Positions 1 through 24,632 of a DNA stretch of 64,000 nucleotides are shown piece after piece (the stretch's first letter is position 1; every line of letters begins with the position of its first letter). Made by a program: the position numbers and the translations under genes. The notes below the pieces were generated by a model. The model saw nothing but the letters and a program-made list of their open reading frames with translations, was not told the DNA's origin and made no database searches. Location: NCBI RefSeq assembly GCF_000027125.1, contig NC_017626.1; one strand, given 5' to 3'. The DNA comes from Escherichia coli 042 (GTDB lineage Bacteria; Pseudomonadota; Gammaproteobacteria; Enterobacterales; Enterobacteriaceae).

Positions 1-1
1 T

Positions 2-76
2 ATCGCCATTCTTATCCTCAAACTCATTGTTGCAGCACTGCAACTGCTTGATGCTGTTCTGAAATACCTGAAGTAA
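2..76 (+). CDS. tisB: Type I toxin TisB, C-terminal 24 codons (5' end lies before the window)
   Basis: In-frame translation IAILILKLIVAALQLLDAVLKYLK* matches the remembered TisB C-terminus; it sits directly upstream of emrD as in K-12. Confidence 0.6.
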   Translation: MAILILKLIVAALQLLDAVLKYLK

Positions 77-96
77 TTCAGATTCAAGTCGCACCA

Positions 97-126
97 AAGG
101 GGAGCGGTTACCCGCTCCCCTTTTAT
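97..126 (+). terminator. Rho-independent terminator downstream of tisB
   Basis: GC-rich inverted repeat aaggggagcgg/ccgctcccctt with a 4-nt loop, followed by TTTT. Confidence 0.6.
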
Positions 127-355
127 ATTTAGCGTGTGGGTTGGTGTCGGATGCGATGCTGATGCATCTTATCCGCCCTACCATCCCTCCCGGCAACATT
201 TATTGCCGCTTTTGTTTACATATTCTGCCGCTAAACAATTCCCCATTCCTGGCGTATATCTGGCTAACATTTATCAATGTGATAGATTCCTCTCCCGCAT
301 TTATGGGAATGCGTAGTGACTTATTCTAATTATTTTTATAAAAGCATCCGTGATA

Positions 356-1540
356 ATGAAAAGGCATAGAAACGTCAATTTGTTATTGATGTTGGTATTA
401 CTCGTGGCCGTCGGTCAGATGGCGCAAACCATTTATATTCCAGCTATTGCCGATATGGCGCGCGATCTCAACGTCCGTGAAGGGGCGGTGCAGAGCGTAA
501 TGGGCGCTTATCTGCTGACTTACGGTGTCTCACAGCTGTTTTATGGCCCGATTTCCGACCGTGTGGGTCGCCGACCTGTGATCCTCGTCGGAATGTCCAT
601 TTTTATGCTGGCAACGCTGGTCGCGGTCACGACCTCCAGTTTGACAGTATTGATTGCCGCCAGCGCGATGCAGGGGATGGGCACCGGCGTTGGCGGCGTA
701 ATGGCGCGTACGTTGCCGCGTGATTTATATGAACGAACACAGTTGCGCCATGCTAATAGCCTGTTAAACATGGGAATTCTTGTCAGTCCGTTACTCGCAC
801 CGCTAATCGGCGGTCTGCTGGATACGATGTGGAACTGGCGCGCCTGTTATCTCTTTTTGTTGGTACTTTGTGCCGGTGTGACCTTCAGTATGGCCCGCTG
901 GATGCCGGAAACGCGTCCGGTCGACGCACCGCGCACACGCCTGCTTACCAGTTATAAAACGCTTTTCGGTAACAGCGGTTTTAACTGTTATTTGCTGATG
1001 CTGATTGGCGGTCTGGCAGGGATTGCCGCCTTTGAAGCCTGCTCCGGCGTGCTGATGGGCGCGGTATTAGGGCTGAGCAGTATGACGGTCAGTATTTTGT
1101 TTATTCTGCCGATTCCGGCGGCATTTTTTGGGGCATGGTTTGCCGGACGTCCTAATAAACGCTTCTCAACGTTGATGTGGCAGTCGGTTATCTGCTGCCT
1201 GCTGGCTGGCTTGCTGATGTGGATCCCCGACTGGTTTGGCGTGATGAATGTCTGGACGCTGCTCGTTCCCGCCGCGCTGTTCTTTTTCGGTGCCGGGATG
1301 CTGTTTCCGCTGGCGACCAGCGGCGCGATGGAGCCGTTCCCTTTCCTGGCGGGCACGGCTGGCGCGCTGGTCGGCGGTCTACAAAACATTGGTTCCGGCG
1401 TGCTGGCGTCGCTCTCTGCGATGTTGCCGCAAACCGGTCAGGGCAGCCTGGGGTTGTTGATGACCTTAATGGGATTGTTGATCGTGCTGTGCTGGCTACC
1501 GCTGGCGACGCGGATGTCGCATCAGGGGCAGCCCGTTTAA
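356..1540 (+). CDS. emrD: MFS multidrug efflux transporter EmrD
   Basis: ORF 350..1540; the translation from the internal ATG (MKRHRNVNLLLMLVLLVAVGQMAQTIYIPAIADMARDL...) is near-identical to remembered K-12 EmrD (394 aa). Confidence 0.93.
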   Translation: MKRHRNVNLLLMLVLLVAVGQMAQTIYIPAIADMARDLNVREGAVQSVMGAYLLTYGVSQLFYGPISDRVGRRPVILVGMSIFMLATLVAVTTSSLTVLIAASAMQGMGTGVGGVMARTLPRDLYERTQLRHANSLLNMGILVSPLLAPLIGGLLDTMWNWRACYLFLLVLCAGVTFSMARWMPETRPVDAPRTRLLTSYKTLFGNSGFNCYLLMLIGGLAGIAAFEACSGVLMGAVLGLSSMTVSILFILPIPAAFFGAWFAGRPNKRFSTLMWQSVICCLLAGLLMWIPDWFGVMNVWTLLVPAALFFFGAGMLFPLATSGAMEPFPFLAGTAGALVGGLQNIGSGVLASLSAMLPQTGQGSLGLLMTLMGLLIVLCWLPLATRMSHQGQPV

Positions 1541-1547
1541 GCTCAAG

Positions 1548-2045
1548 TCACCGCAGCATCGTCATCAGCTCCATGGGAGAACGATGCTGCTTTATCAGAT
1601 CACGCATCACCCGCATATGCGGTGCGGAGTAAGAATAAAACGCCTGATAGTCCGCACATAGCACGCTGTCTGGCATCGCCTCCCGAGCGTGCGGACACAG
1701 CCGATGCCAGTCGCACGCCTGGCAGTCACGGCGCGGTTGCGGGTTTTCGCTGCCACACCATTTTTGTAAGGTGGCGTCAAAAAGCTCAATCGAGATACGA
1801 CTGATATCTGCCCGTACCCAACACTCGAACAGGGCAATTAAAAATTTCCCCCACAGCTCTGCTGTCACCGAAGCGGCCGTCAGATCGCCCCGGTCATCAA
1901 ATTCAAGATGGGGAATAAGCTGTACGGAGCGGAGCCCCCGCTGTTTGAAATTGTGATAAAAATCGGCAGGTTGCAGAGCATCCTTATACTCTACAACCAG
2001 TTTATGCCTGTCCTCTTCAGCATCAATGACCTGACTTCCTGTCAT
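1548..2045 (-). CDS. yidF: YidF, Cys-rich protein encoded next to the yidJ sulfatase
   Basis: 165-aa ORF with C-x-x-C-containing segment (CQACDWHRLCPH); position and size match K-12 yidF; overlaps yidG by 4 bp. Confidence 0.8.
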   Translation of the reverse strand: MTGSQVIDAEEDRHKLVVEYKDALQPADFYHNFKQRGLRSVQLIPHLEFDDRGDLTAASVTAELWGKFLIALFECWVRADISRISIELFDATLQKWCGSENPQPRRDCQACDWHRLCPHAREAMPDSVLCADYQAFYSYSAPHMRVMRDLIKQHRSPMELMTMLR

Positions 2046-2404
2046 GCGACTCTCTCAATAAATACGATAAGTTGATGTATATGCGTTACAGCAAACAGTA
2101 TTGCGAGAGATAACACCGCGAGGGAGATCAAAAATTTGTCACGGACTACGTGAAATTGGGAAAAATCGCTATTCGTGACATCCATTAAATTGCGATTACG
2201 GGTGTAGTGCCAGAGGATCAGCGCCACGATGGCGAGGATGCCAATCGAAATCCAGAATAACATGCCCGCATGGTGCCAGTTGTGTTTGATAACCAACGCC
2301 ATCAACGCGCCGTAGCCCAGCATGGTACGAAACCACGCCAGTGATGTACGCTCCGGCTGCAGCCCTGGGTCGGCAATGCGTCTGGCTTTGCGGCTATCCG
2401 GCAT
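2042..2404 (-). CDS. yidG: Inner membrane protein YidG
   Basis: 120-aa hydrophobic ORF, overlapping yidF and yidH (operon arrangement). Confidence 0.8.
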   Translation of the reverse strand: MPDSRKARRIADPGLQPERTSLAWFRTMLGYGALMALVIKHNWHHAGMLFWISIGILAIVALILWHYTRNRNLMDVTNSDFSQFHVVRDKFLISLAVLSLAILFAVTHIHQLIVFIERVA

Positions 2405-2741
2405 ACAACACCAGTCCCATGACGATCACCGCCACGATCATCAATATTAAGCTGATGATTAATAAGCTGTTGGTATAGGGCAGGTCCTCTTTCAGACGCA
2501 TCGCTTTTTCATTGCGTAACCAGCGCAAGTAGCCATACATCGCTAACCCGCCGGAAAACAGACACAACAACAACGCCAGCAGTTCGCGAATGACGGGCGT
2601 GGCGAAATCTGGCGCAAGTTGGTCAAGCCCAACCCCCGCCGCCAGAAATCCTAGTGCGGTACGGATCCACGCCAGAAAAGTACGCTCATTAGCCAGCGAG
2701 AAGCGGTAATCGGGCGCTTCTCCGAGGCGGGAAATTTTCAT
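2394..2741 (-). CDS. yidH: Inner membrane protein YidH (DUF202-like)
   Basis: 115-aa ORF with two hydrophobic segments, first gene of a yidHGF overlap series. Confidence 0.8.
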   Translation of the reverse strand: MKISRLGEAPDYRFSLANERTFLAWIRTALGFLAAGVGLDQLAPDFATPVIRELLALLLCLFSGGLAMYGYLRWLRNEKAMRLKEDLPYTNSLLIISLILMIVAVIVMGLVLYAG

Positions 2742-2849
2742 TGTTGCTCCTTTGCAATTTCACTAACGCTCTATCTTTAGCGGTTTTTTTTAAGAATTTC
2801 GTCCGCCCGTTTCCTGATATGCTTTTGCCATCCGCTACAAGGAGGTCAG

Positions 2850-3299
2850 ATGGGTATCATAGCTCAAAATAAAATCAGTTCATTGGGCATGCTGTTCGGT
2901 GCCATCGCTTTAATGATGGGGATTATCCACTTTTCATTCGGCCCTTTTTCCGCACCACCGCCAACGCTTGAAAGCATCGTGGCGGACAAAACGGCTGAAA
3001 TTAAAAGAGGTCTTCTCGCCGGAATAAAAGGCGAAAAAATTACCACCGTGGAGAAAAAAGAGGACGTGGATGTCGATAAAATCCTCGATCAAAGCGGTAT
3101 CGCACTGGCCATTGCTGCGCTACTTTGCGCATTTGTTGGCGGTATGCGTAAGGAAAATCGCTGGGGCATTCGCGGCGCGCTGGTTTTTGGCGGCGGGACG
3201 CTGGCTTTCCATACCTTGCTTTTTGGTATCGGCATCGTGTGCAGCATTTTGCTGATATTCCTTATCTTTTCCTTCCTGACCGGCGGTTCGCTGGTTTAA
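2850..3299 (+). CDS. yidI: Inner membrane protein YidI
   Basis: 149-aa hydrophobic ORF preceded by aaggaggt RBS; synteny. Confidence 0.8.
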   Translation: MGIIAQNKISSLGMLFGAIALMMGIIHFSFGPFSAPPPTLESIVADKTAEIKRGLLAGIKGEKITTVEKKEDVDVDKILDQSGIALAIAALLCAFVGGMRKENRWGIRGALVFGGGTLAFHTLLFGIGIVCSILLIFLIFSFLTGGSLV

Positions 3300-3345
3300 G
3301 CAGCCTGAATAATGCCCGCCGGGTGATCATCAGCGGGCATTATCG

Positions 3346-13951: not shown

Positions 13952-14365
13952 TTAGTTGATTTCGATACGGCGCGGTTTTTTCGCTTCCGGAATCACGCGT
14001 TCGAGATCGATATACAGCAGACCATTCACCAGGTTAGCACCACGAACATGAATGTTCTCAGCTAACTGGAATTTGCGTTCAAAGTTGCGTTCAGCGATGC
14101 CCTGGTACAGATAGGTGCGCTCTTTTTGTTCGTCGGCGTGAGCACCTTTCACCACCAGCAGATTATCCTGGGCGGTAATTTCCAGTTCGCTCTCAGCAAA
14201 ACCAGCCACAGCGATAGCAATGCGGTAATGGTTTTCGTCTACCAGTTCAACGTTATACGGAGGGTAGCCGCCATTACTCTGGCTCTGGTTGTTTTCTAAG
14301 TGGTTAAACAAACGGTCAAATCCAATAGCAGAACGGTAAAGCGGGGATAAATCAAAGTTACGCAT
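13952..14365 (-). CDS. ibpA: Small heat-shock protein IbpA
   Basis: ORF 13952..14371; start at [16 protein letters not shown] (14365), giving 137 aa. Confidence 0.93.
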
Positions 14366-14460
14366 AATCAATAGCTCCTGAAATCAGCGAGAATGTAAGA
14401 CCTTCCACAATGGACAGGTCAGGTAGCCAGAACACCCATCAGGCGCGTCCTCATCGGCTA
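14366..14460 (-). promoter_or_regulatory. ibpA 5' UTR (location of the described ROSE-like RNA thermometer)
   Basis: Leader between the sigma-32 promoter and the ibpA AGGAG Shine-Dalgarno; the thermometer assignment is from literature knowledge, and the fold was not computed. Confidence 0.45.
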
Positions 14461-24527: not shown

Positions 24528-24632
24528 TGCCGGATGCGGCGTTAACGTCTGATCCGGCCTACAAAATCATGCAAATTCAATATATTGCACGAGTCTCGTA
24601 GGCCTGATAAGCGTAGCGCATCAGGCACGCTC
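24528..24632. repeat. REP (repetitive extragenic palindromic) elements, two units
   Basis: gccggatgcggcgttaacgtctgatccggcctac and gtaggcctgataagcgtagcgcatcaggc match the enterobacterial REP consensus. Confidence 0.8.

Follow-up and report, generated by a model that had tools for sequence, protein, structure and literature searches.

The first 130 bases of the 64,000-nt stretch of DNA analysed here (hereafter the window) very probably constitute the 3' end of the chromosomal type I toxin gene tisB, comprising the last 24 of its 29 codons, a 19-nt 3' UTR and the Rho-independent terminator of tisAB. This tisB copy is an ordinary, already described chromosomal gene that happens to be truncated where the window begins; its terminator is likewise known. 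Since tisB/istR-1 is among the best-studied type I toxin-antitoxin systems, the finding alone matters little. Its value lies in annotation, in that these 130 bases are to be labelled as partial tisB plus terminator rather than as a novel small ORF. The features of this segment are as follows, with the evidence for each in brackets.

1..76, plus strand: 3' part of the tisB CDS, nt 15-90 of 90 (translation, profile scores, K-12/GMF065 identity, RefSeq)
77..95, plus strand: tisB 3' UTR spacer TTCAGATTCAAGTCGCACC, 19 nt (alignment)
96..123, plus strand: tisAB terminator stem-loop, with loop TTAC at 108-111 (terminator scan, fold, covariation)
121..130, plus strand: T-rich tract TTTTATATTT, 8 T in 10 (sequence)

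The coding tail of tisB and its distribution

Translation of window 2-73 gives, in a single frame, the 24 residues IAILILKLIVAALQLLDAVLKYLK, followed by a TAA stop codon at 74-76. By alignment, the window opens on the last base of codon 5 (GAT, Asp), and window 2-73 corresponds to codons 6-29 of tisB, with the start codon located 14 nt 5' of the window in relatives. We scored the 24-residue fragment against three profiles, and each curated cut-off was passed: 53.9 bits (cut-off 53) for NF011340 and 48 bits (cut-off 38) for TIGR04459, which are the NCBIfam TisB equivalog models, and 32.9 bits (cut-off 25) for Pfam PF13939. Since the fragment aligned to positions 6-29 of the 29 positions in the TisB profile, exactly the first five residues are missing. 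Additionally, window 1-107 aligns base for base with K-12 MG1655 (107/107; the K-12 coordinate equals 3853566 plus the window position), which puts the match to TisB far beyond chance. Translation, the three profile cut-offs and the K-12 identity all agree with the first-pass annotation, which had read the first 76 nt as encoding the C-terminal 24 residues of TisB.

The tail was found in 4358 of 5426 complete E. coli genomes, annotated as tisB by RefSeq and chromosomal in every case. In the approximately 1060 genomes without it, homology to the window starts only at 188-190. Such tail-less genomes are in keeping with a published account (PMC9040746) in which phylogroup B2, E. albertii and clade V lack tisB/istR. 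The tisB-less genomes carry ~150 bp of unrelated sequence instead, and window 188-190 marks the right-hand breakpoint.

We also searched the GTDB representative genomes with a degenerate pattern back-translated from the TisB C-terminus. This yielded 14 loci, from Escherichia, Citrobacter, Salmonella diarizonae, Intestinirhabdus and Enterobacter. A 243-nt contig of a 'Bacillus hominis' assembly (L019, NZ_BOQD01000672.1) matches the tisB tail, terminator and REP of K-12 without a difference, and almost certainly reflects contamination of that assembly by E. coli DNA.

Could the reading frame be a chance ORF, or could the real gene lie on the opposite strand? The ORF list of the relative GMF065 does contain antisense ORFs of 70 and 82 codons overlapping the tail, but it is the plus-strand frame that passes the curated TisB models, and the sole RefSeq annotation at the tail is tisB. 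Furthermore, the substitutions between genera cluster at third positions of the TisB frame: of the 19 coding columns that vary across five genera, 13 lie there, in a test that is partly circular because the search pattern fixed residues 19-29, and in codons 6-18, which the pattern did not constrain and which alone are unbiased, third positions account for 7 of 13 variable sites. The toxicity of TisB is, moreover, experimentally established (PMC4147584). On the strength of the TisB models, the codon-position pattern, the RefSeq annotation and this known toxicity, the antisense ORFs are ruled out as a real gene, and we give practically no weight to a chance or opposite-strand origin of the frame.

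The terminator hairpin and its loop allele

Downstream of the spacer, the hairpin at 96-123 reads AAAGGGGAGCGG-TTAC-CCGCTCCCCTTT and forms a stem of 12 pairs (8 G-C) that has a G+C-rich core of 9 bp; it is followed by TATATTT, and the first three T of the tract at 121-130 also pair in the extended stem. Positions 96-130 thus present a G+C-rich stem-loop followed by a U-rich tract, as in an intrinsic terminator. The terminator scan ranked this hairpin as the strongest terminator-like site within the first 2 kb, and its predicted fold of -23.6 kcal/mol stands well apart from dinucleotide shuffles (z = -4.5).

The stem has been maintained in evolution across five genera. In 15 distinct sequences, 99.4% of the cells of this stem are paired, slid partners giving 42-73%, and 6 of the 12 stem pairs never vary. 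There are 2 compensatory pairs, both from one sequence (Escherichia sp. ESNIH1), and 4 one-sided changes that preserve pairing, three of which involve wobble pairs only and the other of which (pair 23-50) leaves one unpaired cell. The spacer at 77-95 likewise hardly varies among Escherichia, Citrobacter, Salmonella, Intestinirhabdus and Enterobacter (alignment of 16 sequences; mean column identity 91%), and over these five genera the tisB 3' UTR as a whole is conserved with nearly the strictness of the peptide. Similarity between genera then ends abruptly after CCCCTTT of the hairpin.

The position of the hairpin also matches the known transcript length. The full-length tisAB transcript is UV-inducible and measures 359 nt (Weel-Sneve et al., PMC2577331). 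On L001, from GMF065, the tisAB -10 hexamer ends at 2264; in addition, a Term-seq 3' end at K-12 3853441 (L001 2375) corresponds to +105, within the stretch that pairs with IstR-1 and that RNase III cleaves to give the '+106' species (PMC7815308). Both the -10 position and this Term-seq end place +1 at L001 2271, so that a transcript of 359 nt would end at L001 2629, equivalent to window ~129, in the U-tract. The hairpin and its conservation, the U-tract and the published length fit the earlier claim of a strong intrinsic terminator after tisB. Our data support the assignment of hairpin 96-123 as the tisAB terminator, and we infer its efficiency. As to the limits of the feature, given earlier as 2-126, the start holds; the end is better placed at 130, since 126 lies inside the U-tract.

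We also considered that the hairpin might mainly be a conserved 3'-end RNA element, such as a stabiliser or a site bound by a protein, or that it might work in both directions and also terminate the convergent ysdE transcript. In favour of this, all five genera keep the stem, the GNRA loop and the 19-nt spacer, and the U-tract that follows the conserved hairpin is down to UUU in Citrobacter and Salmonella. Since the U-tract is often UUU outside E. coli, terminator strength may differ by genus, or the hairpin may act as a 3'-end stabiliser as well. The E. coli U-tract is nevertheless a good one, the 359-nt length fits termination at the hairpin, and conservation between genera stops exactly at the hairpin end, as expected of a transcript end. 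Since the stem is perfectly palindromic and has AAA/TTT on its flanks, the hairpin also forms in a minus-strand transcript, but on that strand it is followed merely by TTTGGTG. The Term-seq tables for unstressed K-12 (PMC7815308) contain no 3' end at the tisB terminator; what they do contain is a 3' end for istR and another, on the plus strand, within the IstR-1 duplex region. Because tisB is barely transcribed without SOS induction, this missing end weighs only weakly against termination at the hairpin. Taken together, we consider a primarily non-terminating or bidirectional hairpin improbable, and such a function would add to the terminator reading rather than replace it.

Alongside its place in the tisAB terminator, the tisB 3' UTR, comprising the 19-nt spacer and the GNRA-capped hairpin, might conceivably have an RNA-level role beyond termination, for example in 3'-end protection or chaperone binding, a suggestion that we put forward with low confidence. 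The papers on the tisB standby site contain no discussion of the terminator or the 3' UTR, we found nothing relevant in the literature on tisB together with ProQ, and Rfam returned no family for tisB mRNA on window 1-3000.

The terminator loop is the sole difference from K-12 within the tisB tail and terminator, being TTAC in the window and GAAA in K-12; GTAA is a common third allele. Read on the opposite strand, the 28-nt hairpin of the window is exactly the GTAA hairpin (in RNA, UUAC vs GUAA). Owing to this relation, the TTAC allele looks like an inversion, of the loop alone or of all 28 nt, within a perfect palindrome, which, as we infer, would be expected from template switching. With TTAC the hairpin no longer has a GNRA loop, and its predicted stability falls by 1.5 kcal/mol. 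The allele is rare, occurring in 6 of the 4358 tail-bearing complete genomes and in none of the 14 TisB C-terminus loci from GTDB representative genomes; in the other genera examined, all loops are GNRA except that of Enterobacter kpr-6 (GCCA). If the 3' UTR does have an extra role, the window lineage, having lost the GNRA loop, would provide a natural variant for testing it.

The upstream module in relatives

The window itself is without the first 14 nt of tisB and all regulatory parts, and the upstream check was made on the closest complete genomes. The closest of these is GMF065, with 99.8% identity over 1600 nt and full identity over window 1-360; no complete genome is 100% identical over 1600 nt. 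The following elements were located in GMF065, in L001 coordinates.

2052-2181, minus strand: istR (RF01400, 145 bits, E = 1.5e-31)
2233-2252: LexA box TACTGTTTATTTATACAGTA, perfect
2259-2264: TATAAT -10 element
2377-2490: tisA ORF, 37 codons, overlapping the tisB start
2487: tisB ATG, in frame, 14 nt before window base 1

The LexA box is placed 6 nt 5' of TATAAT in both GMF065 and K-12, and the IstR-1/tisB pairing sequence AGCACACTGTrTTATGTCAACA is present in two copies as a direct repeat. The ivbL gene lies ~565 bp upstream of tisB in relatives, and emrD, at 356-1540 of the window, occupies the downstream side of the ilvB/ivbL-emrD location; the tisB/istR locus has been reported always to lie between ilvB and emrD (PMC9040746). 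The junction expected 5' of the window is ...CAGGAGACGCGT-ATG-A(A/G)C-CTG-GTG-GA. Residue 2 of TisB, whose codon is 11-9 nt 5' of window base 1 (L001 2490-2492), is Ser (MSLVD...) in the closest relatives and most non-K-12 loci and Asn (MNLVD...) in K-12.

Six complete genomes are 100% identical to window 1-135, and we examined five of them upstream, GF43 being the sixth. The 601-nt module was uninterrupted in all five, at 99.7-100% identity: those of GMF065, NRZ14408, OW967178 and LT599825 are 100% identical to one another, and that of N3 shows 99.7%. The first-pass annotation had placed IstR-1 and the LexA-controlled tisAB promoter just outside the window, and both were found upstream in the nearest genomes. 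All that it proposed to look for there, namely tisA, the LexA box and istR, is present, as is a start codon in frame with the tail, with ~450 bp sufficing instead of the ~500 suggested. It was also right to caution that the module cannot be assessed as a whole within the window, the module of the source genome being a predicted one.

Across E. coli, at least 80% of the module was found in one place in 4150 tail-bearing genomes, and ~208 of 4358 (4.8%) are without an intact one-piece module. Most damaged modules carry ISKox3 (ISL3 family) in the 8-bp spacer of the LexA box, with target duplication TTATTTAT and the IS end sequence GGGTCTTCCC...; an insertion at this point separates the two operator half-sites. 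The transposase is oriented in the same way as tisB in 190 complete genomes and oppositely in 9, and the tisB tails and terminators are unchanged. Our first IS junction query matched 9 genomes only, because most insertions are in the opposite orientation to those it matched; the 190 came from a second query. Copies of ISKox3 occupy L005 1675-3010 and L020 1178-2508, and the insertion site lies ~255-262 nt 5' of window base 1 in intact genomes. Several strains carrying ISKox3 have names that are probably those of ST410 isolates.

A different lesion was seen in GMF054, where 258 bp have been cleanly deleted between the two direct repeats of the IstR-1/tisB pairing sequence, with junction GGTAACCGCAA|AGCACACTGTG (L004 1500-1560 vs L001 2122-2380). 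The deletion takes out the promoters of istR and of tisAB together with the LexA box and the 5' UTR, while tisB and its terminator remain. The promoter segment is absent in 2 tail-bearing genomes only, GMF054 included. The ISKox3 insertion in the LexA box, the deletion between pairing repeats and the loop inversion may interest those who study SOS-dependent persistence.

These lesions raise the question of whether the source genome has an intact tail and a crippled module, with the LexA operator or promoter split by ISKox3 or the control region deleted, in which case tisB would no longer be SOS-regulated and would be silent or IS-driven. Such insertions and the deletion together account for ~4.8% of tail-bearing genomes. 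Yet the IS and deletion genomes examined carry GAAA or GTAA loops, in contrast to the rare TTAC of the window, and the module is uninterrupted in 5 of the 6 genomes sharing the TTAC allele (GF43 being the sixth), so we hold a crippled module to be very improbable. The 4150 of 4358 tail-bearing genomes with a module give a prior of ~95% for an intact one, which rises given that the five of six TTAC-allele genomes examined were all intact. Judged from the sequences of its relatives, an intact upstream module in the source genome is highly probable.

If the module is intact, it would be expected to operate as established in K-12 (PMC4147584, PMC7708055, which also cover the toxicity of TisB by depolarisation and its neutralisation by IstR-1). 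The tisAB promoter would be repressed by LexA until DNA damage lifts the repression. The 359-nt +1 primary transcript would be translationally inert, and 5' processing would convert it into the active +42 form, to which 30S subunits would gain access through a standby site located ~100 nt 5' of the ribosome-binding site of tisB, itself sequestered. The divergent sRNA IstR-1 would pair over ~21 nt at the standby site, blocking standby binding and leading to RNase III cleavage. Once tisB mRNA exceeds IstR-1, the 29-residue hydrophobic peptide would enter the inner membrane, where it would dissipate the proton motive force, lower ATP and promote growth arrest and persistence. The part in the window (residues 6-29) would encode essentially the whole membrane helix. 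By ending the transcript, the hairpin and U-tract would keep SOS-induced transcription out of ysdE and emrD, and the hairpin presumably shields the mRNA 3' end as well.

Neighbouring sequence and related systems

Downstream of the terminator, the window contains the following features.

144..181, strand not assigned: probable REP element (weak naRNA4 match; PMC2577331)
191..208, plus strand: second small hairpin CGGCAA-CATTTA-TTGCCG, then CTTTTGTTTA (terminator scan)
200..274, minus strand: ysdE, 24 codons, convergent with tisB (RefSeq annotations)
356..1540, plus strand: emrD, multidrug efflux MFS transporter, the downstream neighbour of tisB (ORF list; RefSeq in 5420 genomes)

The earlier reading had the terminator directly upstream of emrD. 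The gene does follow, but not directly, as the REP element, the small hairpin and ysdE occupy a gap of ~230 bp. A REP sequence between the tisAB terminator and emrD has been described (PMC2577331); in the Rfam search of window 1-3000, the element at 144-181 scored 21.7 bits against the REP-derived naRNA4 model, below the gathering score of 59.5. The small hairpin at 191-208 sits where homology with the tisB-less genomes resumes (~188-190). In some strains a G+C-rich palindromic insert of ~140-180 bp, with arms CCCTCTCCCCAAAGGGGCGAGGGG and CCCCTCGCCCCTTTGGGGAGAGGG, replaces or accompanies the REP (L005 3405-3585, equivalent to window ~141-185), and hits H53-H57 have the same extra 139 bp. At its start (272-274, minus strand), ysdE has ATA in the window and in GMF065 and ATG in K-12; the codon before the ATA, at 275-277, is a TTG in the same frame, and ysdE of GMF065 is still annotated by RefSeq.

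Further downstream, window 1543-1941 (yidF) differs from GMF065 by 16 mismatches in 400 bp, compared with 2 over window 1-1542. This suggests a recombination tract, with the source genome being a mosaic relative to its nearest complete relative. Close to the tisB polymorphism there is a second one of presence and absence: yidI (2850-3299; region 2753-3345) is found in the window and in K-12, and ~50 bp stand in its place in GMF065 and TUM13773. Elsewhere in the window, Rfam matches above the gathering score were the ROSE_2 thermometer of the ibpA leader (14359-14431, minus strand), the ES036/CssrF sRNA (24563-24605, plus strand) and AsdA, antisense to dnaA (30082-30162, plus strand), all of them expected for this E. 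coli region. There are no tRNA genes in the 64,000-nt window.

The closest known system is tisB/istR-1 of K-12 itself (b4618, b4616), with which the window shares positions 1-107, the terminator stem and the REP, ysdE and emrD neighbours; the same istR, LexA box and tisA are found in the nearest relatives of the window. K-12 differs in its GAAA loop as against TTAC, in having Asn2 where the relatives have Ser2, and in the ATG start of ysdE as against ATA. Unlike the complete K-12 gene, the window holds 76 of the 90 nt of tisB.

Among other type I systems, hok/sok resembles tisB in that the toxin mRNA is inactive by structure and is processed before translation. The two belong to different families: hok has an overlapping antisense RNA, a coupled leader ORF (mok) and 3' processing, whereas tisB has a standby site and 5' processing. 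Similar to tisB in architecture and logic are dinQ/agrB, zorO/orzO and shoB/ohsC, which, like tisB, encode small hydrophobic inner-membrane peptides from primary transcripts that are inert and processed at the 5' end, and whose trans-acting divergent sRNA pairs in the toxin 5' UTR; dinQ, like tisAB, is also LexA-controlled (PMC4147584). These three, however, are unrelated peptides at unrelated loci, and the fragment in the window matches the TisB models only.
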